DNA of 64,000 nucleotides, taken from contig CAXXFK010000023.1 of assembly GCA_963663965.2 (NCBI GenBank), positions 32,001 to 96,000 of the forward strand, given 5' to 3'. Both the position numbers and the translations under genes were made by a program. The DNA is from Sedimentisphaerales bacterium (lineage in GTDB: Bacteria > Planctomycetota > Phycisphaerae > Sedimentisphaerales > SM23-30). Below are positions 20,068 to 39,150 of the stretch, in pieces; the first letter of the stretch is position 1, and every line of letters starts with the position of its first letter. Below the pieces are notes generated by a model. The model worked only from the letters and a program-made list of their open reading frames with translations, searched no databases and was not told where the DNA came from.

Positions 20068-20288
20068 TCCTGAATGCATAACTATTAAAATTTAAAATAG
20101 TTTACACCAAAGGGTCTGCCAGACCCCAAAACGCCTCGATAACAATCATTTCATATTTTTTTATTTTCAAGTGGAATTGCCTTGAACCCCGGCCAATAAT
20201 CGAAAAAGATTAGCTCTTAAGTAAAGAGTCGTGCCGGATGTTCGCATTCTTGGCATACAAAACCTCTATGGTCACAGGGAGATCGAAA

Positions 20289-23200
20289 ATGAAAAACAAC
20301 ATCTCATTGGTTGGGCGTTATTATTTATTATTTGTCTATTATATCCTGTTTTGCGCCGGTATTCTGCCCGCCAAAATGATATACGTCAAAGTTAATGCCA
20401 ACGGCAACAACAATGGCGCCGACTGGACCAACGCCTACAACCACCTTCAGGATGCCCTGCAAAATGCCCAGCTGGGCGATGCCATATTAATCGCCCAGGG
20501 CTATTATTACCCCAACACGAACACTCAGTACCCCAATGGGACCAAAGACCGCACCCTGTCATTCACCCTGAAAAACGGCGTAACACTCGCAGGTGGCTTC
20601 GCGGGCGACCCCAAAAAACCTCTCTCCCGAAATCCGTCCTTATACAAAACCTATCTCAGCGGCGATATTGGTATCCTTGGCAACACGGCCGATAACAGCT
20701 ACCACGTCCTTTACGCCAACGCCGTAACCAATGCCACAGTCGATGGTGTTTATATCATCTACGGCAACGCCAATGCGAGCTCAGGCTCCAACGCATCCGG
20801 CGGAGGACTCTATCTCTACAACTGTTCGCCCGAAATCAATAATTGCCAGTTCAAATTTAACGAAGCGCATACCGGCGGGGCAATCTATGGCGCGATCGTT
20901 TCTCCCAACATCACCGAATGCCGTTTCGAAGAAAATTCCTCCTCTCAAAAAGGTGGCGCTATTTATGTCGCCGCCGCTTCCAGCCCAACTCTGGAAGGCT
21001 GCACCTTCTATAATAACATAAGCAATTACGGCGGCGCATTATACAGTTATAACGGCATGCCCGACCTTATCAACTGCGTTTTCGACCAGAACATGTGTTA
21101 TTTTGGCGGCGGTGCGCTCTATTACGAAATGAGCAACGGCGCCATCCTTCAGTCAATTTTTTGCAATAATGTCGCGATCCCCTGGGAATCCCCTCCGCCC
21201 GGCGGTGCGCTCTACTGCCGGGATAGCAATCCCCAGATCATTAACAGCGTCTTCTGGAATAATTTCAGTATGATTACCGGTGGCATCTATGGCAATTCCG
21301 CCCCAGCCATCACCAATACCATTCTCTGGAATAACGGCAGCTCCAATCTCTATGACCAGATCGATTGTACTTCCGCCTCGGTCAATTACTGTTGTATAGA
21401 AGGCTGGGATGGCTCCCTCGGCGGAACGGGCAACATTGCCGCCGATCCCCTCTTTGCCGATCCCGTTAACCTCAATTTCAACCTGGCTGCCGGCTCTGGC
21501 GGTATCGACGCCGGCCAGAACGCCGCCCTCGGCGACCTCCTCATGAACGACTTCTATGGCAATCCCCGCTATGGTAACGATCCCGCCACTCCCGACACCG
21601 GTAGCGGCGCTGCCCCGATTATCGATATCGGCGTCGCCGAAATCCCCTCACCCTCCGTTATCTTTGTCCGCACCGACGCGCCCGGCCCCGATCACGACGG
21701 ATCCAGTTGGAGCAAGGCCTATTTATACCTGCAAGATGCCTTGGAAGTTGCCGTTGCCGGTCAGCAGATCTGGATCGCCAAAGGCGCCTATAAACCCGAC
21801 CAGAGCAAAGACCACCCCTCCGGCACCGGCAACCGCGACGCCACCTTCGATATCAACGATGGCATTGCCCTCTATGGGGGGTTCGCGGGCAACGAAGATC
21901 CCGAAACGTATGACCTGGCCCAACGCCAGTTGCAACTCAATGAATCGATCCTGAGCGGCAATATTGGCTCCACCGGCACATCAACCGACAACTCCTATTC
22001 CATCGCCACCCTGGAAGGCGTCGGCGGTTCTGTCGTAATCAACGGATGCCTTTTTCAGGAGGCCTGGGCTGATGGCACTGAATCGAAACAGAAAATGGGA
22101 GGTGCACTCTACTGTGATGGGGTCGCTCCCATCATGTCCCAGTGTATTGTCCGTAATTGCCATTCCATATGGCATGGCGCCGGCATTTATACCAATAACT
22201 GCGATCCTGTTATCCTAGATTGTATCTTCAGATTCAACACGATCGATACCAACTATGGCGGAGCCGGTTTATTTTGCGGCAATGGAACATTAAAATTAGA
22301 ACAATGTCTTTTTCAACGTAATCAGGCAAAAAATGGCGGAGCCTTGCATGTACTTCAATCGGAGGTTTTCATTACCGAATCCGAATTCTTTTATAACCAG
22401 GGCTCTTATGGCGGCGGGGCCCATTTTTACGGTTGCCCGTCAGTCACGCTTGACCGTTGCGTTTTCTCAGGCAATCAAGGATTCAGCGGCGGGGCTCTAT
22501 CCGCTCAATGGGATTCATTTGCTATGTACAATTGTTTGTTTTATAACAATACCGCCGACCTGGGCGGCGCGGTCTATATCTGGGAAACCAGCTCTGCCCG
22601 GGCCGCCAATTGCACCCTGGTTGATAATACCGCCAACCAGGGCGGCGGCCTCTTCGCGGTGAATAATACGGTCGATGTCAGCAATACAATCTTGTGGAAT
22701 AACCAGGCTCGGATGCCGGAAGTCCAGGATAACCAGTTAAAAGGAGGCGGATCATACCATTACAATATCAATTACTGTTGCGTACAAGGCTGGTCCGGCA
22801 GCCTCGGCGGCGCCGGCAACACCGGTAACGACCCCCGCTTCTACGATTCGGATGTCCAGGATTATCATTTGCGCCCCGGTTCACCCTGTATCGACGCCGG
22901 CGATAACGACACCCTCCCCGATTTTGCCACCCTCGATCTGGACGGCCGCAACCGCTTCTATAACGACCCGTTCTCGCCCAATACCGGCCACGGCATTTCT
23001 CCCCTCGTCGATATGGGCGCTTATGAATATCGTTTGCACTATCGGGTCAGGCCCCCTCTCCCCACGCCCAATCCCAACCCGCAACTCAACGACGATGTCA
23101 CCGAATTTACCAATCTACAGGACGCGCTCACCGCTGCACAAACTGGCGATGCTATCTGGGTTTCCGCCGGAACCTATACGCCCGATCAGGGCGGTCTATA

Positions 23201-24614
23201 CGCCGCTGGCGATCAGAACGCCACCTTCCGCCTCAACAAAGGCGTCCGGCTCTATGGTGGATTCCCCGTTGATAATGACGCCTGGGAATCCCGCAACCCA
23301 ACTCTCCACGAAACCATTCTCAGCGGCGACCTGGCCGGCGATGACGGCCCCAATTTCACCAACTACACCGACAACTGCCTCCACGTCCTCGATGGCTCCG
23401 GTACCGACCAGACCACCATCCTCAACGGCTTCACCATCTCCGGCGGCAACGCCGGCCCCAACTACCATCCCGCCAATAAAGGTGGAGGCATCATTATCTT
23501 CCCCGGCAGCCCCACCATCAAACTATGCCACTTCACCGCCAACTCAGCCGCCGGCCATCGCGGTGGCGCCATCTTCAATAAAAGCGACAGCAACCCCTGG
23601 ATTACCCAATGCCGCTTCACCGCCAACCGGGCCGGCGAAGGCGGCGCCATCTGCAACGAAGGCGATTGCAGCCCGCTCATCGAAAACTGCGAATTCACCG
23701 GCAATGCCGCCGTCGCGACTGCCTATGGCTACGGCTCCGGCGGCGCCATCCACAACCGCGCCAATAGCAATCCCATTATTCGCCGGTGCCGCTTTATCGA
23801 TAACACCTCCAATGACGATGCCGGCGGAATCATGAATTACAGCGATTGCCACCCAACCATCGAACAATGCCTCTTTAGCGGCAACGCCTCCAACGACAAG
23901 GCCGGTGCTGTATACGATCGCACGTATTGTGCCTCCACCCTTAAAAACTGCACCTTCTATAACAATCAGGCCGCCTACGGCGGCGCCCTCTATGCCTGGG
24001 AATACTGCACCGGCTTCGTCCTGAATTCCATCTTCTTTAAAAACGCCGCCACCTACGGCCCCGAACTGGCCTCCCATAACCGCAGCAATGTCAGGATCGA
24101 TTATTGTTGCATCGATCCCGAAGCCACCCTCATCGATGGCAATTCCCAGATCCAATGGGGCGTTGGCAATATCAGCGAAGATCCCCGCTTTGTCAACGCC
24201 GCGGCCGGCGACTTCCACCTCCTCAGCAAAGGCTGGTACCTGAAAAACGACTCCTGGGCCTGGTCCGGCTCTACCAGCCGTTGTATCGACGCCGGCTGCC
24301 CCGGCTCGCCCTTGCAGAATGAACTCGCCACTGTTCCGTCCGATCCCTCCAATACCTACGGCATCAATCTCCGGATCAACATGGGCATTTACGGCGGCAC
24401 CGACCAGGCCTCTATGCCCCCCCATCACTGGGCGCTCCTGTCCGATTACGACAACGACGGCATCGCCGCCCTCACCGATTTCAACCTGCTCTCCAACACC
24501 TGGCTCTCCACTGACAGTTATCTACCCGGTGATACCAACCGCAACGCCGCTACCGATCCGCCCGATATGCAACTGCTGGTCGAGGACTGGCTGGCAACCA
24601 CCACCTGGCATTGA
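20289..24614 (+). CDS. Large secreted right-handed parallel beta-helix protein (three modules) with dockerin-like C-terminus
   Basis: Three repeats of LQDAL..A..GD.IW...G.Y.P...F.L..GV.LYGGF, many GGA/FxxN repeats, DP.F..D.HL..GSPCIDAG module ends, and a terminal GDTNRNAATD...DWL. Confidence 0.85.
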   Translation: MKNNISLVGRYYLLFVYYILFCAGILPAKMIYVKVNANGNNNGADWTNAYNHLQDALQNAQLGDAILIAQGYYYPNTNTQYPNGTKDRTLSFTLKNGVTLAGGFAGDPKKPLSRNPSLYKTYLSGDIGILGNTADNSYHVLYANAVTNATVDGVYIIYGNANASSGSNASGGGLYLYNCSPEINNCQFKFNEAHTGGAIYGAIVSPNITECRFEENSSSQKGGAIYVAAASSPTLEGCTFYNNISNYGGALYSYNGMPDLINCVFDQNMCYFGGGALYYEMSNGAILQSIFCNNVAIPWESPPPGGALYCRDSNPQIINSVFWNNFSMITGGIYGNSAPAITNTILWNNGSSNLYDQIDCTSASVNYCCIEGWDGSLGGTGNIAADPLFADPVNLNFNLAAGSGGIDAGQNAALGDLLMNDFYGNPRYGNDPATPDTGSGAAPIIDIGVAEIPSPSVIFVRTDAPGPDHDGSSWSKAYLYLQDALEVAVAGQQIWIAKGAYKPDQSKDHPSGTGNRDATFDINDGIALYGGFAGNEDPETYDLAQRQLQLNESILSGNIGSTGTSTDNSYSIATLEGVGGSVVINGCLFQEAWADGTESKQKMGGALYCDGVAPIMSQCIVRNCHSIWHGAGIYTNNCDPVILDCIFRFNTIDTNYGGAGLFCGNGTLKLEQCLFQRNQAKNGGALHVLQSEVFITESEFFYNQGSYGGGAHFYGCPSVTLDRCVFSGNQGFSGGALSAQWDSFAMYNCLFYNNTADLGGAVYIWETSSARAANCTLVDNTANQGGGLFAVNNTVDVSNTILWNNQARMPEVQDNQLKGGGSYHYNINYCCVQGWSGSLGGAGNTGNDPRFYDSDVQDYHLRPGSPCIDAGDNDTLPDFATLDLDGRNRFYNDPFSPNTGHGISPLVDMGAYEYRLHYRVRPPLPTPNPNPQLNDDVTEFTNLQDALTAAQTGDAIWVSAGTYTPDQGGLYAAGDQNATFRLNKGVRLYGGFPVDNDAWESRNPTLHETILSGDLAGDDGPNFTNYTDNCLHVLDGSGTDQTTILNGFTISGGNAGPNYHPANKGGGIIIFPGSPTIKLCHFTANSAAGHRGGAIFNKSDSNPWITQCRFTANRAGEGGAICNEGDCSPLIENCEFTGNAAVATAYGYGSGGAIHNRANSNPIIRRCRFIDNTSNDDAGGIMNYSDCHPTIEQCLFSGNASNDKAGAVYDRTYCASTLKNCTFYNNQAAYGGALYAWEYCTGFVLNSIFFKNAATYGPELASHNRSNVRIDYCCIDPEATLIDGNSQIQWGVGNISEDPRFVNAAAGDFHLLSKGWYLKNDSWAWSGSTSRCIDAGCPGSPLQNELATVPSDPSNTYGINLRINMGIYGGTDQASMPPHHWALLSDYDNDGIAALTDFNLLSNTWLSTDSYLPGDTNRNAATDPPDMQLLVEDWLATTTWH

Positions 24615-27943: not shown

Positions 27944-28768
27944 TTATTGTAGCAGCTGCTCTCGCAGCCATTCAGGACGGTTCGTCGTAATGCCGGCCAC
28001 TCCAAGATCGACGAGTCGTTTCGCCTCCTGGGGGTCGTCCACCGTCCAGACATAAAGTTTCTGGCCGGCGGCCTTTACCGCATCCATAAATTCCTGATTG
28101 ACGCCCGCGTAGTGCAGATCGAGCCCATCCAGTCCGTTTTCGACGGCAACATCGATCAGGGATGGGTCATGGGGGAGGTATTGCTTGGTAACCTCATCTT
28201 TGTCGGTTCCCTTGAGCCAGTACACCGGGATCCGGGGCAGCTGTTTTTTCGCCGCCGCGGCCGTTTCCAGGCCGAAAGAGATGATAACAATCTGTTTGGA
28301 TTTGCCGCTTTTTTCTATCATCGGTACCAGAACCGGCAGAATTTCCGGCCCGCACTTGATTTCCACGTAGAGCTTTTTGCCCCGGGGGATCCTCTCGATA
28401 ATATCTGCCAGAAAGGGTATCGGCTCGCCCTGGTATGCTTCGGACTTGAATGAACCGACATCGACCTTCCTGAGTTCGTCGGATGTGGTATCCGCGATTT
28501 TCAAATCGACGTTTCCGGTTCTCTTGGTGCTGGAATCATGCATGACCATGATCCGGTTATCCCTGGACAGGTAAACATCGACCTCGACATCGGCATTCTT
28601 TTCCCAGCCGAGCATCACCGATGCCATGGTATTCTCCGGGGCGATATAAGACGCCCCCCGGTGGGCGATAATTTCAACTTTTTCTTCGGCTTTCATAGGC
28701 CGCCCGGCGCAGCCGGCGGTGATCATCATAACAAATCCAATCAAAACAGTTACAGCAACGTATTTCAT
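27944..28768 (-). CDS. Glycerophosphodiester phosphodiesterase (probable lipoprotein)
   Basis: IIAHRGAS..APENT, EVDV, MHD, VEIK, VWTVDD, GITTNRP and a TAGC lipobox. Confidence 0.93.
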   Translation of the reverse strand: MKYVAVTVLIGFVMMITAGCAGRPMKAEEKVEIIAHRGASYIAPENTMASVMLGWEKNADVEVDVYLSRDNRIMVMHDSSTKRTGNVDLKIADTTSDELRKVDVGSFKSEAYQGEPIPFLADIIERIPRGKKLYVEIKCGPEILPVLVPMIEKSGKSKQIVIISFGLETAAAAKKQLPRIPVYWLKGTDKDEVTKQYLPHDPSLIDVAVENGLDGLDLHYAGVNQEFMDAVKAAGQKLYVWTVDDPQEAKRLVDLGVAGITTNRPEWLREQLLQ

Positions 28769-29277
28769 TTTTTGCTCCCTTAACTATTTTTTCTATTTTC
28801 TGACAATACAACGCCACAGCATACCGCCTTATTTCCATATAAGCAATATCTAATTGTTATCTAACACTCGCAACCCAAGACACCATTTCCCCGGCAACAC
28901 CAGCGCCGACACCCCACCGCTCCCCAGAACCCCTGCCGACGCCGACATCCCCATAAATCACAGCAAACAAAATCCGGCCGGCCAACCCCAATACAACCAT
29001 AAGTCGCTATATATCAACCACTTACTACCCATATGGCCCTCTTTCTCCCGCTTGGACCGATAGCCCCATTCTCTAACTCAGACCGCCGCCAACAAATTCG
29101 TTGCCAACAAATCTGTTGCAACCCGCCGCGCAATTCGGCCAGATAACCACCAAACGCCCCATCCCACATCACAAAACCATCACTAACAGCTTCGATTATC
29201 TATCCCCTATCGATCCCGTATTGCTCATGAAGAACACCAGCGGCTTGGCCGTCAGGAGAATCGGCTTGTTTGGTTCT

Positions 29278-29760
29278 TCAATGTATCCATTGTCGCCTGA
29301 CTTCAACAACGTTGTCATTTTCGTCCATTAATAGATCAAATTGCCAACCAAAACGACCACAATCAAATCTGAAAACAATTGCTTTTTCATTTTCATTTAG
29401 CGGCCAGAAAGGAAAATTATAAGATCCCTTTCTATGATTTGGGTCATGCTTAAGCAATAGTAGAACTTCTTCTGTCTTTAAACCAATAAGGTTCTTCTTT
29501 TCCGCCTCCATAACTCTAGCTGCTGCGTTTATTGCCGATACGGGCGAAACGAAATAAGTCACATCCCCGGTATCATCTACCGTTTGCATTTCGACCAGTT
29601 TCCACATCTTCGCCTTATCTGTATCCAAATCGGTAGAAGCAACAACTTGAGAATCTGGCTCTTCATCATCTATACTGTTTTTCGCATCCTCGGATGAATT
29701 ACAGGAAGACAAGAAAAGGCTAGCCATTAACAAGAGTGGTATGATTCGGTAAATTTTCAT
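29278..29760 (-). CDS. Hypothetical lipoprotein (cassette-like)
   Basis: GGAG RBS, MKIYRIIPLLLMASLFLSS-C lipobox, AT-rich, flanked by decayed attC-like palindromes. Confidence 0.7.
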   Translation of the reverse strand: MKIYRIIPLLLMASLFLSSCNSSEDAKNSIDDEEPDSQVVASTDLDTDKAKMWKLVEMQTVDDTGDVTYFVSPVSAINAAARVMEAEKKNLIGLKTEEVLLLLKHDPNHRKGSYNFPFWPLNENEKAIVFRFDCGRFGWQFDLLMDENDNVVEVRRQWIH

Positions 29761-29875
29761 ATCTTCTCCATTTAGTTCATCGCTGCCGTTAGGCGGCCGC
29801 TGCAAAGCGTTAATATGTATTTAGTCGTTTTCTGTGTTTTCATACACAATTAATTTCAAACAGGCCAATCAGTAC

Positions 29876-30484
29876 TCATCGATCACACCACAAAATCAAC
29901 CGCACATCATCTGGCGCGCCAAATCCTCTCAGTTCCTGAATGATATTCGAGAGGTGCGTTTCTCCAAAAGCTTTGCGATATGTTTCCGTCCAAGTAACGA
30001 TACAACCATTACGCATCATCTCGGAATAGCTAAGGATCCCCTCAGGTAGCCCATGTTGATTCGGATTGAATTTCACCGCATCTTCTTTTGAAACCATTGC
30101 TTCTCGAACAATTAAGTTCTTATCCCATTCAAAGTCAAGAATCTCTTGCAGCGTTACCCAGCTGGAATGCGCCACATCTTGGCCTATTGAATAATAATCT
30201 GCGGCAACTTCGGCACAGGCATCCTCTGGAAAACCGCGCTCCGGCACAATGGGCGAGATGGGGTCTTTGGACCAGGCATAACGCTCATTTATCAGTATGG
30301 CCGCATAAATTTTTGAATCACCGATTTCTATCGGCCGCGGAATCATGGCTGGATAGGGACAGGGCTTCTCATCCGGATATGGCTCATCTGAACAATAGCA
30401 ATCCGGATTAGGCACCATTTCCGTAGCACGTTGCCATATCTTATCGATCCGGATTTCAGGGTAAGCCCAAACCGAAATAGACAT
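29876..30484 (-). CDS. Hypothetical protein
   Basis: 202-aa ORF with an AAGGAG RBS. It contains RGFPED, HSSWVTLQEILDFEW and DDVRLILWCD motifs but no recognisable function. Confidence 0.7.
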   Translation of the reverse strand: MSISVWAYPEIRIDKIWQRATEMVPNPDCYCSDEPYPDEKPCPYPAMIPRPIEIGDSKIYAAILINERYAWSKDPISPIVPERGFPEDACAEVAADYYSIGQDVAHSSWVTLQEILDFEWDKNLIVREAMVSKEDAVKFNPNQHGLPEGILSYSEMMRNGCIVTWTETYRKAFGETHLSNIIQELRGFGAPDDVRLILWCDR

Positions 30485-31019
30485 TTAAAGACTCCTTATA
30501 TCTCGAATCTATATAAAACACAGTATATATTATTTTGTTGACAACTCCTGAAATCAAAATAAATCTTTAAGATCAAGTCGCCGAATTTCATATCAAAATT
30601 GAAACCGCCCTAAAGATATATAATCACAAATATTATGTTAATAAGTTCCAAGTAAGCTAAACTGCGACAGGGGCAATTCTTCTTCCTTCAACCAGTTATT
30701 TGCCATTAATGCCAGATCTTTAACCTCTTCCGGCTGTTCCTTCACTTGCTTCACTATCTTCTATGAAGCCAGAGGTCAAGAGGGAAAAGTGGTTTATATG
30801 GCATTTTATTGTATTTCCTTATTTCAAAACATGTTATCCTGTCCTTGCCCTTGCGGAGGATAAGGCAACGCTGAGGAGCGACCTGAGCGCCGTCAAGGGG
30901 TCCGGGAAGGCAGGCGGCGTACCTACGCCGCCCCTCCTGCCTTTTTGGACGATAAGCGATAAACCTGATCAAACAAATTTTCGCGCAGCGAATCCTTATT
31001 TTTATTCGATAAAATGCTC

Positions 31020-31200
31020 GATTGTTTCAGCCTTCTATCCGGGGTGTCCAGGTCTTCTTTTTTTACCATGGTCCCATTCCATCGTTTACGATACGGCTTA
31101 ATCTTCACGTCAGGCTCTAGACCCATCAAGTGAAACAAGGTTCCATATCGATGTCAATCAAGCAAAATCTAAGCATTCGTTAAAATCAGTCAAAGAACGG
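31020..31200 (-). ncRNA. Putative bridge/seek RNA of the IS1111-type element (boundaries approximate)
   Basis: Four short segments match the reconstructed target (TTCACT, CGTGAAGAT) and the donor junction (CATGGTA, ATAGAAG), in target-loop then donor-loop order. Confidence 0.65.
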
Positions 31201-31221
31201 TACGCGATCAAAACGTATTTT

Positions 31222-32277
31222 TTATCCGGATACGGCAGCCTTCAGCGGCGGCATCTGCCAGGGCGTCCCATCGCGCAACATCGCCCACATCCGCACAAAC
31301 AACCGCCGCGCCACCGCGATAATCGCTATCTTGGAGCGTGTCTTGCTGTCGCGCCGGATCCGCTGATACGTTTCTCGTATCCACGGATTGGTTCGCTGGC
31401 CCAGCCAGCAGATCTCCACCAGCAGACTTCGCAGCAAACGATTGCCATCCTTACTGATGCGGCCCTGCCGGTCGATCGTTCCCGATTGATACTGGCGCGG
31501 GGTCATACCGATATAGCAGCCCACCTGCTTGCAGTTCTGAAACCGGTGGGGATTATCGATTAAAGCGGCCACCGCTTCGGCCGTCCGTTCGCCCACGCCC
31601 GGAATGGTCGTGAGCAATTGCACGTGCCGGTCCGTTTGGTTCAGGGCATGCAGTTTGTTGTCGATCACCAACAACAATTCGCCCAGAGTGTGCAATAACT
31701 CCAATTCCACCCACAAGCTGCCACGCCAGAGCGCCTCCACCGGCACCTCGGCCATGGGACAGGCCAGACTCCGCAAATGGGCGATCTGTTTTTGCGACCA
31801 GCCGTTTTTGCCGGAAGGCATCGGCAGGGCCTGACGATCCAGCAGCGCCCGGATGGTGTTTTTGCATTGTGTTATTCGTTCGACGATACTTTTCCGTTCA
31901 TTAATCAAGGCCCGTTTCTCGCGCACCGCCTTACCCGGCACATAGACGGTCGGCAGATCGCCCAGTGCCGTCCGACGGGCCAGCCACAGCGCATCCTTGC
32001 GATCCGTCTTCTTTTTCAGGCGTTTACCCCGCCACTCCTCACTATTGGTATTGGCCACTCGATAATCAATCTCCAAATCATCCAATAAATCGCAGATCCA
32101 ACCAATGATACCACAGGCCTCGAAAACCACACAATCGGCCGAATGAGTCACCACCAGATCGTGAATCGCCTGCGGACGGGTGGGAATCGTCCAATATTCC
32201 TGGGCGCCGCTGCCAATTTGATAACGACACGCTACACTCTTGAATTTTCCTAAATCAATTGCCATAATAGTCTTCAT
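31222..32277 (-). CDS. IS110 family transposase/recombinase
   Basis: DEDD RuvC-like residues (AIDLG, FEAC, KTDRKDA), IPGVG, QYQSG (catalytic Ser) and RISKDGNRLLR. AGGAG RBS before ATG 32277. Confidence 0.95.
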   Translation of the reverse strand: MKTIMAIDLGKFKSVACRYQIGSGAQEYWTIPTRPQAIHDLVVTHSADCVVFEACGIIGWICDLLDDLEIDYRVANTNSEEWRGKRLKKKTDRKDALWLARRTALGDLPTVYVPGKAVREKRALINERKSIVERITQCKNTIRALLDRQALPMPSGKNGWSQKQIAHLRSLACPMAEVPVEALWRGSLWVELELLHTLGELLLVIDNKLHALNQTDRHVQLLTTIPGVGERTAEAVAALIDNPHRFQNCKQVGCYIGMTPRQYQSGTIDRQGRISKDGNRLLRSLLVEICWLGQRTNPWIRETYQRIRRDSKTRSKIAIIAVARRLFVRMWAMLRDGTPWQMPPLKAAVSG

Positions 32278-32585
32278 AGCCAGAATGCTCCTGTAAAAAG
32301 GTGTCATGAGCGCCCCCCGGGCAGCTCGTGTTCATATACAACAAATGTGCATTATAGCACGAACCACCGCAACGGGACATTCTGGCTTTCATGATATCTT
32401 CACGGTAAATAATGTATTTTGGTTTTTTGCCTTCCCCGGCTGTTCCTCCACTCTCTTCACTACCTTTAAGGGTATAGCTGGTTTATATTCTTATTCCATC
32501 CCCACCTTCAGCCGCATCCAGTTCACCTCTAAACAAAATTGTGTCATGCTACTATTTGTAAATATACAACATAATTCCCTTTGTT

Positions 32586-33374
32586 TTAATACACCGCCGC
32601 CGGCAACCGTACCGCCTGGCCGGGCGATGAATGAAGCTGTTCCGAAATCGACTCTAGAAACTGCTGAAAAACCTCCGCCGTTAGACGCTCATTCCCATAA
32701 TGATACCGGTAAATTGCGCTCATTTCCTCCGGTTTATAACGCCGGGCCGTTGTCACAATATACCGGGCCAGCCTTGGCTGTAGCGAAAAATTCAATTGTT
32801 CCGCAAGCGCCAGGGATTTTACCAGACACCGCAATGGATCCGGATTGGCTTCCAGATTGATATCGATGGATTCGTTTAAAATGGCCTCAAAAAATCCTTT
32901 GGAATAAATTGTCCGCATTCTGCCCGACCGTACAAAAAGCTGCACGGCAATTGCGTCAATATCCAGAAAAGTCGTCTTGGTATAATCCTCAAAATGCTCT
33001 CGATAACCAACCAGTCGTTGCTTAAAGGCCCAGGTCTCACTTAAGGGCCATATGTCTATTTTGTTTTGTATGACTTGAAACGAAACGCCGCCAAAGCGAT
33101 TCATTTTAGGCTGGTACGCTTTGAATAAATCCCGGATGCGTTCCGCATCATGATCGCGCACAATGATATCGATATCCCTGATTTCATTCACCCTTACCAG
33201 AACCAGCCGCCTTACCGCCCCCCCACATAAGTAAGCCGAATCCTCGCCATATTGTTCGCGAATAAATTCCAATACTGTCCTGGCGTCATCCCCCCACGAA
33301 TCGCTATTCTGAATAAAACGATTCAGGCGACTCTGCAAGCGCTGTTCTAATTGTTCGATTTTGATGCTATCCAT
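32586..33374 (-). CDS. Small class II (CCA/poly(A) polymerase head-like) nucleotidyltransferase
   Basis: YLCGGAVR...RDIDIIV (GG plus DxD), NRFGG, IDIW, TTFLDIDAIA and PDPLR. Only 262 aa. The start overlaps the dGTPase stop by 8 nt. Confidence 0.75.
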   Translation of the reverse strand: MDSIKIEQLEQRLQSRLNRFIQNSDSWGDDARTVLEFIREQYGEDSAYLCGGAVRRLVLVRVNEIRDIDIIVRDHDAERIRDLFKAYQPKMNRFGGVSFQVIQNKIDIWPLSETWAFKQRLVGYREHFEDYTKTTFLDIDAIAVQLFVRSGRMRTIYSKGFFEAILNESIDINLEANPDPLRCLVKSLALAEQLNFSLQPRLARYIVTTARRYKPEEMSAIYRYHYGNERLTAEVFQQFLESISEQLHSSPGQAVRLPAAVY

Positions 33375-34751
33375 GAGTCAGGTCTTTGTGCAGACTGCAT
33401 GCGTACGTGTCTGTCATGCCACAAATATAATCCGTTACCAGCTGCAATCGACAATAATCAGCCGGATATCTTTGCGCCTTATCTTCTATTGTCCGCTTAA
33501 ATATCTCGCGATAGTTGCTGGACATTAATTTGTAAATTTTATTTTCAAAGTTCTTTGTGTCTTTCCCCTTTTCTGAAGCCCCCCTCCAGAATAACGCCAT
33601 TAAATCATGGATCACACGGTATCCCATAATTTCCAGCTTTAAGGTCTCGGTGGATTGGTAAACATACTTTTTTCCAATGGCCTTACACGCCTTGATCAAT
33701 CCGCTGGCATCACAATCTTTATACAACTCACCATGATATTGACCGGATATCATATCCTGATAGTTCGACTGAAAGGCTCGAATGACAGAGTCTGCCAGTT
33801 TGCCAATATAAAACACACGAAATGCCTGCACGAAAGCCTCATCCTGATTTTTACCGGTCAGTTCGATATCATATTTTTTCGAGCGATCGATAAGATCTTT
33901 TGAAAGTTTTTCGCAGTCATCCAAAATTGAAGCATCAGCGTCCATCTCTTTTCTAACCAAATTAACCATTTCCTCCCAGCCAATCACACCCTTCTTAACA
34001 CCATCTTCAAGATCGACCACAGAATAAACAATATCGTCACAAGCCTCTACGATATAAGTAATCGGATTTCGATGCTTGCCCGTACCGGTCTCCTGGCGGA
34101 TCTTTTCGACTAAATCGGATTCCGTGGAAAAATAGCCAAGCGTCTTGGTCTCATGACAGGCGTCATCGATCTCCTGAGACGATGCCAGATATTTACAAGC
34201 CGCCGACATTGTCGCGCTGGTAAAATTCAATCCAAACGGATCGGCCAATATCTGTAATTTCGAAATCAGACGTACTGTCTGTGCGTTGCCATCAAAATGG
34301 GAAAAATCGCCCGCTAAGCCTTCATCATTAATGTTGATAGCATGTTTGTTTGCTCAAACCACTCCTGAATCGCCACCTCGCCGGCATGCCCGAAAGGAGG
34401 ATTACCCAGGTCGTGGATCAAACCACAGGTCGCGGCGATTGTTTTTATCGAGTCAATTTGTGCCTCTTCTGATATTTCCCCCTCCTCCAATAACCAGCGT
34501 CCAATTGCACCTGCTACATCCCGGGCAACAGTAGACACTTCCAGCGAATGAGTCAGACGGGTCCGCACCGAATCATTGGGATCTAGTGGAAACACCTGGG
34601 TTTTATCATGCAAACGACGTACTGGTGAGGAAAATACCGCCCGATCATAATCGCGATCAAATTGTGTCCGATGATCGCCGGTTTTTGCGGATGATTGTCC
34701 GGTGATTAATTCCCTGACACGCTTTATTGATAATAAAGTCTCCCATTTCAT
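33367..34751 (-). pseudogene. dgt: HD-family dNTP triphosphohydrolase (dGTPase), split by a 1-nt frameshift near 34350
   Basis: The 5' part has RRLHDKTQVFP, RTRLTHSLEV and HDLGNPPFGHAGE. The 3' part, in another frame, has FDGNAQTVR, EACDDIVY...DLEDG and DYICGMTD. Restoring one A in GAGCAAACAAACAT joins them into a ~460-aa protein. This could be a sequencing error. Confidence 0.85.
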
Positions 34752-35101
34752 CACCATAATCAAAATTCCATATTTTCTGCAAATTTCTGACTGCCAGACG
34801 AAATTCGTAATACGTTTTTCTTATTATAAATTCACACACCTCCCTTGGCAAAACAAAACTATATCCCGAAAATCAGACGCTTTCCTGCCCAATCAACTCA
34901 CCAAATTCAACCTATTTATAAGACGCCATTTAAATGACACAGTGAATATTATTTCGTTGACAAATCCCAAAAAAACACAAATCCATATATATCAGCCAGT
35001 TATTATCACATAAGTCCCATTCGACCTATTGGACCAATATTTTATAAAATTACAATCTATAATAATGTATGGTTAATTATAAAATAATTGTGAAACAATA
35101 T

Positions 35102-35130
35102 TTGACAATCAATAAACGCTGTTCTATAAT
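35102..35130 (+). promoter_or_regulatory. Consensus sigma70 promoter
   Basis: Exact TTGACA-17 bp-TATAAT, preceded by an AT-rich tract. Confidence 0.8.
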
Positions 35131-35489
35131 CCCACAGTCGCCCCAATAGCCCCTGAACCACCCGCCTGATCCAAGCGTGCTCCGCCCCAACCGGCCACGC
35201 CCGCAGAGCCTCTCTGCGCATTTTGAGGGTTATGATGCGTTCTGGGCGACCTAATTCGGGCGCGGCTTGTGGGTGCATGTTCTCGGCCCAGCGCGATCGT
35301 GTGCGAACCGGAACGAAACGAGCCGATCAGATAAGGTTGTTATAACAACACGAATGAAATGGAAATCAACAAACTAAAACAACCTGACATGCTAATTGTA
35401 AAAGCCCCGAAGATCGAAGATCCGCCTCAGGAGGAGCCGACCGTTTCTAGCCGGGGTTCGTAAGGCCCCGGTCAGCGATTGTAATTGTA

Positions 35490-36318
35490 ATGTTTTTAAC
35501 CCAAGCCTCCCCGGAGGCGTACCGACAGGATTTCGCACCGGAAGCGAAAGATAATGTAGGATGGGCAACCCCCGGATGCCCATGCCGCAGGTCCGCCGTG
35601 GCGGGCTGGTTAAATAAACCATGAGCGCAGCGAATACCAACACAAAACGAAACAAACCCAATGATAAAAATAATCGCCTTAACCTATACCACGAATTGAG
35701 TTTAACAAAAAATATAAAATCATCCGCCGAACGGCGGATACCCAAAGCAGCCCAACGGGCAAGTATAAAATAGCCCAGGGTAGAGCGAATCCCGTAAAAC
35801 GGGACGAGCGCCACCCTGGGTAACAAAACAGAATTTGAATATTTTAAACCCACGCCTCGCAGAGGCGTACCGCCAGGATATCTCGCAAAAGAGATAGATA
35901 AAACTAACCATGAGCGCAGCGAATACCAACATAAAACGAAACGAAGCCAATGACAAAAAATATCACCCTAACCCCAACAACGAAATGAGCTTAACAAAAA
36001 ATAAAAAAACATCCGCCGAACGGCGGATACCCAAAGCGGCCCAACGGGCCGGCATAAAATAGCCCAGGGCAGAGCGAATCCCGTAAAACGGGATGTGCGC
36101 CACCCTGGGTAACGAAACAGAATTTTAAATTTTAAACCCACGCCTCGCAGAGGCGTACCGCCAGGATATCTCGCAAAAGAGATAGATAAAACCAACATGA
36201 GCGCAGCGAATACCAACTTAAATCTAAACGAACCCAATGACAAAAAATATCACCATAACCTCAGCAACGAAATGAGCTTAACAAAAATTAAAAACTCATC
36301 CGCCCCAAGGCGGATACC
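35490..36318 (+). repeat. Tandem array of ~288-bp hairpin-rich units (about 2.4 copies plus a degenerate upstream part)
   Basis: ATGAGCGCAGCGAATACCAAC recurs at 35621, 35910 and 36197 (periods 289 and 287). The two full units carry the hairpins ATCCGCCGAACGGCGGAT, GCCCAACGGGC, CCCAGGG..CCCTGGG and ACGCCTCGCAGAGGCGT. Confidence 0.92.
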
Positions 36319-36373
36319 ACAATTTTGCATTTTAAATTCTAAATTTTAAATTTCTAAACAGGAGGTACCAACC

Positions 36374-37213
36374 ATGTCATCGTCACTCAGAAGACTCAGA
36401 GCCAACCGTCGTAACGCCCAGAAATCCACCGGCCCCAAAACCCCAGAGGGCAAGGCCATCTCATCGAAAAACGCCATCAAGCACGGCCTCAGCGGCCAGG
36501 ACCCCGCCCACCTCATCGTTCCCGGCGAATCCGAACTCACCTACCTCGAGTTCCGCGCCGCATTGTTGCAGGACCTCAAACCAACCACCTACCTCCAGCG
36601 CCACATCGCCGACCAGATCGTCTCGGCCGCCTGGCGACTGGAACGGATCGGCCGCATCGAAGCCGAAATGGTTGACGCCCGTGTTTATAAACTCCGGCTC
36701 ACCAACGAAGAAATCCGCAAAGACACCGTCATCGACCAGCCTTTCGCCCACTCCAGTATCTACTTACCCCGCCATAACGAAGTCGGCACCGCCTTCACCC
36801 TCGAAGTCCCCGCCTTCAACTGCCTGGCCCGCTACGAAGCCCACCTCAACCGAATCTTCCAGGCCAATCTTAAGCTCCTGCAACAGTTGCAATTACAACA
36901 AAAACCAAACGAACCCAATGCCTACCCCCCACAGTACCCATTTCCCGACTTACCCCGCGTCCACATTCCCGACCCGCCCAGAATCCCCACACACCCCAGC
37001 GAAGCCAAACTCGCCCCCGAATACATCAAAGACCGACTCCCCGAATTGATGAAAGACCACAGCGTAACTGACGACCAGGTCTTCAGTTACGCCTGCAACC
37101 GCTACGAAGCCCTCAACGATTTCGCCAACCAGAACGGCGAAGAAGCCCTCCACGCCCTCGGTATCCCCACCAAACCCCCGGCCGATATCCCCATCCAGGA
37201 GGATAAGAAATGA
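36374..37213 (+). CDS. Uncharacterised 'ANRRNAQKSTGP...NAxKHG' family protein
   Basis: AGGAGG RBS. The N-terminus RANRRNAQKSTGPKTPEGKAISSKNAIKHGL is followed by IVSAAWRLERI...E and LARYE motifs. Confidence 0.85.
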   Translation: MSSSLRRLRANRRNAQKSTGPKTPEGKAISSKNAIKHGLSGQDPAHLIVPGESELTYLEFRAALLQDLKPTTYLQRHIADQIVSAAWRLERIGRIEAEMVDARVYKLRLTNEEIRKDTVIDQPFAHSSIYLPRHNEVGTAFTLEVPAFNCLARYEAHLNRIFQANLKLLQQLQLQQKPNEPNAYPPQYPFPDLPRVHIPDPPRIPTHPSEAKLAPEYIKDRLPELMKDHSVTDDQVFSYACNRYEALNDFANQNGEEALHALGIPTKPPADIPIQEDKK

Positions 37214-37331
37214 TGTAACCCGAAACACCATAACACCATCCCAACATCAGTGGATTAATCCCACCCCATTAATCCGCCCGCATCCGTTGCGCCCACACAG
37301 AATGGATTAACCATCGGGGCCAACAGCCCCC

Positions 37332-37360
37332 TTGCCAATAGTCGCAGGATGGCTTAAAAT
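37332..37360 (+). promoter_or_regulatory. Possible sigma70 promoter of cstA
   Basis: TTGCCA-17 bp-TAAAAT. Confidence 0.4.
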
Positions 37361-37407
37361 ACGTGAACACTTGAAATGAACAAACTAAATCTGACAAAGG
37401 TAATCTA

Positions 37408-39150
37408 ATGACGACAATCCTGTTAATGCTGGGCTCGTTTGTTGGTTTTATCATCGCATACAATACCTACGGCCGCTTCCTGGCTACCCGCATCTTCAAA
37501 CTCAATCCCGACGCCCCTGTTCCCAGTCGCGAACTGACTGACGGCGTTGATTACGTTCCCAGCCGCAAAGGCGTTATCTTCGGCCACCACTTCACCAGTA
37601 TCGCCGGCACCGGCCCCATCGTTGGACCGGCCATCGGCATCATCTGGGGTTGGCTGCCCGCCCTGCTCTGGGTCTTGCTGGGCAGTATCTTCATCGGCGC
37701 CGTTCACGACTTCGGCTCGCTGGTCGTTTCCCTGCGCAACGAAGGCAAAAGCGTCTCCGAAATCGCCGCCCGCTATATCAATTCACGCGTCCGCTTCATC
37801 TTCTTCTTCATCGTCTTTCTCGCCCTGCTGATCATCATTGCCATCTTCGGCATGGTCATCGCCGTCGTCTTCAACATGTTCCCCTCCTCCGTCATTCCCG
37901 TCTGGGCTCAGATCCCCATCGCCGTCTTGCTCGGTATCGCCATCTACAAAAAGAACATCCCCGTCCTGCCCGCCACCGCCATCGCGGTCATCGCCATGTA
38001 CCTGTTCATCCTGCTTGGCGCGGTTATCGACAGCCACTGGCCCGGCAAAATCCTGATCCCCGACCTCTCCTGGATGCCGGCCACCGGTTCCTGGACGATT
38101 ATCCTGCTGATCTATGCCTTTATCGCCTCCACCCTGCCCGTAACCACCCTGTTGCAACCGCGCGATTATACCAACGCCTGGCAATTATTTGTCATGATGG
38201 CATTGCTCGTCGTGGGAGCATTGGCCTCCGGTTTAACCGGCCACCTGGAACTGGCCGCCCCCGCCATCAATACCGCCGCCACCGGCGCGCCGCCTGTCTG
38301 GCCTTTTATGTTCGTCACGATCGCCTGTGGTGCGGTCAGCGGTTTCCACTCACTCGTGGCCAGCGGCACCAGCCCCAAACAAATCTCCCGTGAACCCGAC
38401 AGCCTCTTTATCGGTTACGGCTCCATGCTCACCGAAGGCGCCCTGGCAGTATTAATCCTGGTCTGCGTTTCCGCCGGTATCGGCATGCTCTACACCACCG
38501 CCGACGGCCAGAGCCTCTCCGGCCAGGCGGCCTGGCTGCATCATTACCAATCCTGGTCCGGCGCCAGCGGTATGGGCGCCAAACTCGCCGCCGTTGTCAA
38601 TGGCGCGGCCAATATGATGCAAACCCTCCATATCCCGCTGGCAATCGGCAAAGTTCTCATGGGCGTCTTCATCGCCTCTTTCGCCGGCACCACCCTCGAT
38701 ACCGCCGTCCGCCTCCAGCGCTATATCGTCAGCGAACTGGCCGGCGACCTCAAACTCCTCCCCCTCCAAAACAAATGGAGCGCCACCTTCTTCGCCGTCC
38801 TGACCGCGGCCGGCCTGGCCTTCGTCTCCGGCGCCAACGGCAAAGGCGCCATGAAACTCTGGCCGCTGTTCGGCACGATCAATCAGCTATTGGCCGTTCT
38901 GGCCCTGCTGGTCGTCACCATGTATCTGCGCCGCCGCCCCGGCCGGGCCTGGTTGCTCACCCTGGTTCCATGCCTGTTCATGCTGATTATTACGACCTGG
39001 GCCCTCACCATTAAAATCGGAGATTTTTATCACGAAACCCAACCCAACTGGCTGCTGGTCAGCCTGGCCTCGGTCGTATTAGTCCTTGCCATCTGGATCG
39101 TGCTGGAAACCGCGATCCTGTTATTTAAACAAATACCCGACAAACATTGA
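37408..39150 (+). CDS. cstA: Carbon starvation protein A family transporter
   Basis: DGVDYVP, FGHHFTSIAGTGPIVGP, QPRDY, TIACGAVSGFHSLV, TTLDTAVRLQRY and LWPLFGTINQLL. Confidence 0.95.
   Translation: MTTILLMLGSFVGFIIAYNTYGRFLATRIFKLNPDAPVPSRELTDGVDYVPSRKGVIFGHHFTSIAGTGPIVGPAIGIIWGWLPALLWVLLGSIFIGAVHDFGSLVVSLRNEGKSVSEIAARYINSRVRFIFFFIVFLALLIIIAIFGMVIAVVFNMFPSSVIPVWAQIPIAVLLGIAIYKKNIPVLPATAIAVIAMYLFILLGAVIDSHWPGKILIPDLSWMPATGSWTIILLIYAFIASTLPVTTLLQPRDYTNAWQLFVMMALLVVGALASGLTGHLELAAPAINTAATGAPPVWPFMFVTIACGAVSGFHSLVASGTSPKQISREPDSLFIGYGSMLTEGALAVLILVCVSAGIGMLYTTADGQSLSGQAAWLHHYQSWSGASGMGAKLAAVVNGAANMMQTLHIPLAIGKVLMGVFIASFAGTTLDTAVRLQRYIVSELAGDLKLLPLQNKWSATFFAVLTAAGLAFVSGANGKGAMKLWPLFGTINQLLAVLALLVVTMYLRRRPGRAWLLTLVPCLFMLIITTWALTIKIGDFYHETQPNWLLVSLASVVLVLAIWIVLETAILLFKQIPDKH

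Follow-up and report, generated by a model that had tools for sequence, protein, structure and literature searches.

An NTase-paired, frameshifted dGTPase gene in a Sedimentisphaerales bacterium is probably a planctomycete member of the Clover family of anti-phage modules

The stretch of DNA analyzed here (64,000 nucleotides of contig CAXXFK010000023.1 from a Sedimentisphaerales bacterium of the Planctomycetota; hereafter the window) carries on its minus strand two head-to-tail genes, a dGTPase gene running from 34751 to 33367 and then a nucleotidyltransferase (NTase) gene running from 33374 to 32586, which, to judge by their sequences, probably form a Clover-family anti-phage module. Clover is a phage defence system composed of the dGTPase CloA and the NTase CloB, as found in Salmonella enterica SA20044414 and in the H5 strain of Escherichia coli (Yamaguchi et al., PMC12265719). 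The gene pair adds a member to this published system, from a lineage that is unnamed in the available part of that paper, and is not a new system. The dGTPase gene is split into two reading frames, a feature absent from the observations of the first-pass annotation of this DNA, and its product is probably inactivated in this genome. The elements of the pair are as follows.

33367 to 34751, minus strand: cloA-like dGTPase gene, frameshifted; matches Pfam HD and HD_assoc and the PADLOC dGTPase model; best solved relatives 9p8s-9p8v
34326 to 34353, minus strand: frameshift zone with the site CAAACAAACA; one base missing or an equivalent change
33367 to 33374, minus strand: 8-nucleotide (nt) stop/start overlap ATGGATAG; the same overlap of -8 occurs in 40 of 55 homologous loci
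32586 to 33374, minus strand: cloB-like NTase gene, 262 amino acids (aa), intact, with ATG at 33374 and TAA at 32588-32586; catalytic aspartates invariant

Counted from the dGTPase start codon at 34751 through the end of the NTase at 32586, the pair measures 2166 bp. Its guanine-plus-cytosine (GC) content (0.40-0.47, compared with 0.50-0.63 for the flanking DNA) agrees with the earlier description of an AT-rich two-gene unit with overlapping ends. The conserved 8-nt junction between the dGTPase and NTase genes suggests that their translation is coupled. Gene order (dGTPase, then NTase) and overall size resemble those of Clover, the cloned Salmonella and E. coli operons of which measure 2203 and 2200 bp, and the catalytic aspartates of the window NTase, Asp 67/69, have their counterparts at Asp 71/73 in Salmonella CloB (PMC12265719, available part).

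The dGTPase start codon at 34751 aligns with CloA residue 1, and both parts of the split protein match Pfam HD/HD_assoc and the PADLOC dGTPase model (E 5.8e-36 and 1.2e-35). The catalytic set is complete across the two parts, comprising in CloA numbering the metal ligands H69, D242, and H117/D118 and the dyad H126/E129, and these residues are invariant or nearly so in 39 NTase-linked family members; the dGTPase motifs read earlier from the letters (metal-binding histidine, HD motif, H..E dyad, and DD motif) are all in place. When compared with solved structures, the C part of the dGTPase matches the Salmonella CloA chains 9p8s-9p8v best (E 7e-54), with the next protein at 2e-25, and the N part also finds these chains first, narrowly (2.6e-33 vs 9.7e-31). 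Judged by these search scores, the window dGTPase is nearer to CloA than to other dGTPases. The entries 9p8s-9p8v are eight-chain "dNTP triphosphohydrolase" depositions in the Protein Data Bank (PDB), and they are identified as CloA because every residue number of PMC12265719, in the part available, lands on the right letter of the chain at an offset of +2, namely T25, R29, R34, D37, R38, and F41 as well as R46/47, Q53, H69, N75, N382, D389, and R411. The same part of the paper prints the CloA codes as 8P9S-8P9V, probably a transposition of 9p8s-9p8v, and that of the Shewanella enzyme as 9P8W.

Other dGTPases stand further away. Stand-alone anti-phage dGTPases (the type of Tal et al. 2022, and the Shewanella enzyme SpdGTPase, 9P8W) are likewise HD-domain dGTP triphosphohydrolases matched by the PADLOC dGTPase model, but they act alone, as hexamers, whereas the window type is paired with an NTase, and SpdGTPase is far more distant (9p8w E 3.2e-18 for the window N part and 6e-4 for the C part). 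The housekeeping Dgt of E. coli (4x9e) and a second dGTPase encoded by the host genome share superfamily and catalytic residues with the window protein, but 4x9e matches the window C part at only E 3.1e-24, against 7e-54 for CloA, and the housekeeping type occupies a conserved chromosomal context (Listeria, E. coli).

The resemblance to CloA extends to the ligand pockets. In CloA, the inhibitor p3diT, a 5'-triphosphorylated dinucleotide, is contacted by T25, R29, R34, D37, R38, F41, N75, N181, Q311, and R314, and the side chains of R47, D61, Q172, K256, S418, N420, T449, and Y452 contact the activator dTTP (PMC12265719, available part). In the printed alignments, the window dGTPase is identical at nine of the ten p3diT contacts, the exception being N75, which is replaced by T, and at all eight dTTP side-chain contacts; A444, a main-chain contact in the dTTP pocket of CloA, is Y in the window protein. 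These sites were also aligned across 39 intact NTase-linked homologs, with the second dGTPase of the genome as a control. The linked homologs keep R29, R38, and S418 throughout (39/39 each), R314 and Q172 in 38/39, N181 in 37/39, N420 in 35/39, K256 in 30/39, and Q311 in 26/39, and the second dGTPase deviates from CloA at F41, Q172, K256, Q311, R314, S418, and N420.

The NTase carries the sequence motif GG...DxD...hDh, in which G51, G52, D67, D69, and D107 are invariant in 40 homologs, together with the further invariants R66, G95 G96, W109, T114 W115 A116, T135 F136, and N177; T135, F136, and the N177-P178-x-P180 motif are invariant or nearly so in the family. The CloB active-site motif [D/E]h[D/E]...h[D/E]h (PMC12265719, available part) is matched by D67-I-D69 and I-D107-I. 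Library matches are weak: the Pfam PolyA_pol head falls short of its cut-off at E 7.6e-4, a CCA-enzyme model gives 6.4e-4, and phrog_1614 "nucleotidyltransferase" gives 2.2e-6. An AlphaFold2 model of the NTase has a predicted local distance difference test score (pLDDT) of 92.3 and a predicted template-modeling score (pTM) of 0.89. A Foldseek search with this model returned 48 PDB matches at E <= 0.001, and the top 46 are class II CCA-adding, A-adding, or poly(A)-polymerase enzymes, aligned over 225-278 columns of head and neck to targets of 344-517 aa (TMq 0.44-0.60, E 8.6e-9 to 1e-5). By its predicted structure, the NTase corresponds to a class II CCA-adding enzyme pared down to head and neck, lacking the tRNA-holding body and tail, as had been proposed from its motifs and short length. 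It shares with the class II CCA- and A-adding enzymes and poly(A) polymerase the predicted head/neck fold and the GGxVR...DxD motif, but differs from them in the absence of body and tail, in family-specific sequences at the putative equivalents of motif B (TTFL in place of RRD) and motif D (PDPLR in place of EDxxR), in not being a housekeeping copy, and in its presumed product, which by analogy would be a free dinucleotide and not an extended tRNA. Close relatives of the NTase number 141 among the candidates searched, mostly unnamed or "hypothetical" and from planctomycete metagenome-assembled genomes (MAGs). With a profile built from 40 of these sequences, matches at E <= 0.001 were obtained to 1,887 cluster representatives, 524 of them reaching <= 1e-30. 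In addition, the ESM Atlas holds clusters of 262-264-aa "hypothetical protein" sequences, commonest in Pseudomonadota and Myxococcota, with a score of 0.97, which serve as a lead only.

The connection of the NTase with Clover runs through a plasmid-borne system of Phaeobacter. The dGTPase of that plasmid aligns full-length with CloA (E 5.4e-139; second-best match 1.9e-56), and the 259-aa protein encoded downstream of it defines the NTase family A2. Profile alignment (hhalign) of the window NTase family with the Phaeobacter-type family A2 gives a probability of 99.93% and E 1.1e-35 over 220 columns, at 22% identity. By this alignment, the window NTase family is homologous to the NTase that accompanies a near relative of CloA, and the suggestion that the locus is a distant planctomycete member of Clover, a system named in the first-pass annotation and existing as described in the available part of PMC12265719, gains support from this homology. 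Searches by sequence, profile, and fold found no CloB in the PDB, and none of the 41 close relatives of the Phaeobacter NTase is named as coming from Salmonella, E. coli, Xanthomonas, or Methylobacterium. When a conserved 288-nt stretch of cloA was compared by blastn with 5,426 E. coli genomes, 78 genomes were matched; all 50 of the 50 matches listed fall under a dgt annotation, and one match inspected has the context mtnN-dgt-degP. The "plasmid" dGTPases of Listeria and Aliarcobacter (31% identity) have no NTase partner, and a paper on octameric dGTPases (PMC13519002) does not mention Clover, NTase, CloB, or Planctomycet.

Conservation of the gene pair was followed in one genome per species, in which 58 loci encode a relative of the NTase. 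These loci are distributed over Planctomycetota (22), Acidobacteriota (11), Myxococcota (9), Verrucomicrobiota (4), Armatimonadota (4), Proteobacteria (3), Bacteroidota/Rhodothermota (2), Sericytochromatia (1), Dormibacterota (1), and Negativicutes (1). The same type of dGTPase lies directly upstream of the NTase in 54/58 loci from about ten phyla, so the linkage expected in the first-pass annotation is borne out. As for the remainder, in L041 the dGTPase is truncated and 2.9 kb removed from the NTase, L049 has no upstream sequence by which to judge, and the NTase stands without an adjacent dGTPase in L012 (a Cystobacter MAG) and L052 (an Armatimonadota MAG). The count of exact 8-nt overlaps (40/55) refers to loci with both ends callable, and some deviating overlaps may stem from taking the first start codon. 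The same pair is also plasmid-borne in Bacillus thuringiensis, B. cereus, and Phaeobacter piscinae. Clover has been reported in Proteobacteria, Bacillus, Clostridia, Myxococcia, and Flavobacteriia, and the classes bearing it include Alphaproteobacteria, Bacilli, and Myxococcia (PMC12265719, available part); the pair was found here in groups of these last three classes alike.

Defence genes in the vicinity of the homologs were sought in 101 of 203 flanking open reading frames (ORFs), from 14 of 31 loci of at least 11 kb. Matches to PADLOC at E <= 1e-8 were obtained for 18 of the scanned ORFs, in nine loci, and strong defence systems (Septu, short pAgo/TIR, AbiLi, and RmrA) adjoin the pair in 4 of the 14. 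The homolog neighbourhoods are consistent with defence islands, but the counts are raw and without a background control, so that enrichment is unproven. In one locus (L004:58-4307), a complete-looking Septu (PtuA/PtuB) and a DpdF-like helicase lie beside the pair; in another (L016:6864-10775), a TIR-APAZ protein, a short pAgo, and an HNH protein do so; AbiLi and RmrA lie beside it at L018:8027-9070 and L029:3273-4484, respectively. On the window itself, the PADLOC search proposed earlier was fruitful in part, since the dGTPase parts match the dGTPase model, but the NTase matches none of the PADLOC models.

The reading frames of the window dGTPase bracket the break. The N part runs from 34751 to 34317 (145 aa) and is stopped by TAG at 34316-34314, and the C part lies in another frame from 34353 to 33370, with its stop TAG at 33369-33367, and is closed upstream by TGA at 34356-34354. 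The frameshift is confined to 34326-34353, because the TGA closes the C frame and the TAG closes the N frame. This zone encodes a variable loop between "...EWF" and "DFxxF(E/D)GNAQ", where homologs are continuous and have loops of 21-44 aa. A programmed -1 frameshift was rejected as unsupported, no X_XXY_YYZ heptamer being visible in 34326-34353. Breaks are also found elsewhere in the family: the dGTPase genes of L043 and L058 are frameshifted in the same loop and that of L050 has an in-frame TAA just after EWF (break regions L043:4955-5075, L050:4960-5080, and L058:4935-5060), the dGTPases of L051 and L041 are broken further on, and the NTases of L056 and L058 are damaged. Over the 58 loci and the window, six dGTPases are broken, and in four of them, which come from unrelated lineages, the break falls in the loop, a region making up about 6% of the gene; three of these breaks are frameshifts and one is a TAA. 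The loop was also considered as a break hot spot by means of 27 short N-terminal fragments on contigs of at least 10 kb, hand-picked among 120 listed of 1,900 matches. Homology ended near the loop (reference positions 128-170) in 12/27 and beyond it (171-257) in 15/27, so that no clear excess is seen, and truncation at contig edges confounds the count.

Whether the window carries a broken or an intact copy bears on how the locus is to be read. On balance the frameshift seems to be real, but it is conceivable, at a distinctly lower probability, that the same module is intact and working and that the frameshift is an error of a low-coverage metagenomic assembly in a hypervariable loop. The sequencing depth reaches only about 4.9, the gene is broken once with all motifs intact on either side, the host genome (7.24 Mb in 42 contigs) is 94.6% complete with 5.4% contamination, and the breaks of L043, L050, and L058 in the same loop could mean that assembly is troubled there. 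Against an error, a 2,812-nt contig of depth 4.9 produced from run X1 by a second assembler is letter-identical over a stretch of 2,501 bases, with 0 differences and 0 gaps; since it probably derives from the same reads, a polishing slip is ruled out and a low-coverage error is still possible, and two further runs (X2, X3) cover next to none of the stretch, for which no RNA data set is listed. Furthermore, the site CAAACAAACA is not a long homopolymer, the break of L050 is a nonsense codon without insertion or deletion, and no start codon occurs between the break and the essential FDGNAQ motif.

The remaining alternatives concern what kind of system the pair represents. It is unlikely that the pair is a related two-gene system with different chemistry, in which the signal would have other bases or another length or would switch the dGTPase on instead of off. 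Such a system would account for the T or S found at N75 in 25/39 family members and for the variability of T25, and it would agree with the low identity of the NTase to the Phaeobacter-type family, with the NTase loci L012 and L052 that have no adjacent dGTPase, and with the pairing of CloB-like NTases with patatin, ParB/HNH, and other effectors (extended-data legend, PMC12265719). However, the p3diT pocket keeps the phosphate-binding arginines R29, R34, and R38 as well as N181, Q311, and R314, the dTTP pocket is kept entire, and a distant Xanthomonas CloB also yields p3diT (PMC12265719, available part). A further proposal, that the environmental clade of this pair is a Clover variant with its own signal chemistry and that one surface loop may also be a recurrent site for disabling the dGTPase, appears quite improbable; the clade would span Planctomycetota, Acidobacteriota, Verrucomicrobiota, Armatimonadota, Myxococcota, and others, with T or S at N75 in most members, and the recurrent loop breaks would then mark either a mutational hot spot that turns a costly effector on and off or a split form that is tolerated. 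Least of all does the pair look like housekeeping genes, with an ordinary Dgt for dNTP pools beside a tRNA CCA-repair or poly(A) enzyme, and this possibility is very slight. In NCBIfam the dGTPase is matched best by a generic equivalog for dGTPases, and this, the weak library matches of the NTase to a CCA/poly(A)-polymerase head, and its class II CCA-enzyme fold are what such an explanation would draw on. The host genome, however, encodes its second dGTPase on another contig (C36) and, separately, has a 433-aa open frame that weakly matches the CCA-enzyme head region (E 7.2e-5) and is a candidate CCA enzyme. A full-length NTase match occurs in only one of 40 relatives of the same family or order (G015, E 5.7e-123) and is lacking in the other 39; the other 33 matches are weak (E 5e-9 to 8e-4) and fall in the head region of open frames of 374-468 aa. 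The NTase is too short, at 262 aa against 344-517 aa, to include the tRNA-holding body and tail, its partner across phyla is strictly a single type of dGTPase, and the pair lies in low-GC DNA beside an insertion sequence (IS). From these sequence comparisons, the gene pair is accessory and its dGTPase is a second copy, not the housekeeping one; the linkage of the NTase to dGTPases and the accessory nature of this dGTPase run against two of the outcomes that the first-pass annotation had named as grounds for abandoning its idea.

Assignment of the window pair to Clover is weighed down by several points. One departure lies at N75, which in CloA reads the second thymine (T2) of the signal and across the 39 linked homologs is T in 18, S in 7, and N in 6; T25 is variable within the linked family too, and the window pair may use a signal other than p3diT. 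With N75 replaced, the weakest point of the proposed mechanism is which bases the signal contains. Many of the conserved contacts (RDYDR, RRL, KTQVF, and GMTD) belong to general dGTPase motifs. H263, which stacks between tetramers of CloA, varies across the family and is E in the window dGTPase, so octameric assembly is uncertain. The NCBIfam anti-phage dGTPase models score below the generic PRK01096 model on the window dGTPase, and NF002205 gives 171.9 and 207.8 bits on the two parts, a sum still under its cut-off of 439. For the NTase, membership in Clover is indirect, by way of a putative Phaeobacter system. Experiments on members have, to our knowledge, been confined to Proteobacteria. None of 15 neighbouring ORFs of the window matched PADLOC, and the window therefore shows no recognizable defence island. 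Finally, the dGTPase is broken, so that nothing at the locus need be functional. In sum, the window pair differs from Clover as described in its planctomycete host, its frameshifted cloA-like gene, the substitutions N75 to T and H263 to E, the moderate identity at which its C part aligns with CloA, and the lack of a recognizable defence island around it.

The surroundings of the pair comprise the following features.

29000 to 36500, no strand: low-GC stretch, about 0.40-0.48 except for the IS, containing the pair, the IS, ORFs without known function, and a repeat array
29278 to 29805, minus strand: small ORF, 175 aa, no family match
29876 to 30484, minus strand: small ORF, 202 aa, phage family phrog_10141 of unknown function, E 3e-13
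31222 to 32307, minus strand: IS110-family transposase gene (RNA-guided type), context only; Pfam Transposase_20 and DEDD_Tnp_IS110; NCBIfam NF033542 at 206.6 bits, cut-off 140
34823 to 34851, minus strand: sigma-70-like promoter candidate, TTGCCA-17-TATAAT, 11/12, about 70 nt upstream of the dGTPase ATG
36374 to 37213: small ORF, no family match

Ordinary genes border the low-GC stretch, with GDPD and SSF on one side and CstA on the other, and the nearby IS noted in the first-pass annotation corresponds to the IS110-family transposase gene, which lies 278 nt downstream of the NTase stop. The promoter is a candidate only, because the number of sigma-70-like sites in the region (8 observed) matches that in shuffled sequences (7.1 +/- 2.5). 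Just upstream of the pair, at 35494-36318, are three tandem copies of a unit of about 288 nt that are 87-99% identical and have a strong AT skew. The host genome matches this unit 122 times, on over 20 contigs and mostly in short tandem arrays, and Rfam has no match for it; it is a genome-wide repeat family. Rfam gave no matches anywhere within 28500-37500. Elsewhere in the window, 20238-24614 on the plus strand encodes a probable large surface protein of 1,458 aa, which has Chlamydia-PMP-type repeats and a region resembling DUF5123. Among viral contigs, 24 pattern matches were obtained and none was confirmed.

On the Clover model, constitutive synthesis by the NTase would supply a 5'-triphosphorylated dinucleotide, by analogy with p3diT in Salmonella, and this dinucleotide would occupy the allosteric pocket of the dGTPase formed by R29, R34, R38, N181, Q311, and R314, keeping the enzyme off in uninfected cells. 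Phage replication would raise dTTP, which would fill the adjacent pocket and turn on dGTP hydrolysis in an intact copy, and the active dGTPase would starve the phage of dGTP. The restraint of the dGTPase by an oligonucleotide made by the NTase, which had been put forward in the first-pass annotation, is favoured by the similarity to CloA, the allosteric residues, the linkage, and the homology of the NTase. Hailong (oligo-dA) and Panoptes (2'3'-c-di-AMP), as cited in the available part of PMC12265719, follow the same logic, in which a constitutive nucleotide restrains a toxic effector, but their NTase families, effectors, and triggers are unrelated.

In the copy described here, a single frameshift in a surface loop would leave the effector dead as assembled and the NTase as a harmless "antidote". 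CloA without CloB is toxic and kills the cell (PMC12265719, available part), and for this reason loss of the effector first is the expected order of decay; a copy that has lost its toxic effector first would fit this published lethality. The known mechanism of Clover is unchanged by the locus. What the pair would add is an occurrence of the Clover type of dGTPase control by a nucleotide signal far beyond the groups of the original description, together with a structural reading of the CloB-type enzyme as a CCA-adding enzyme reduced to its head and neck.

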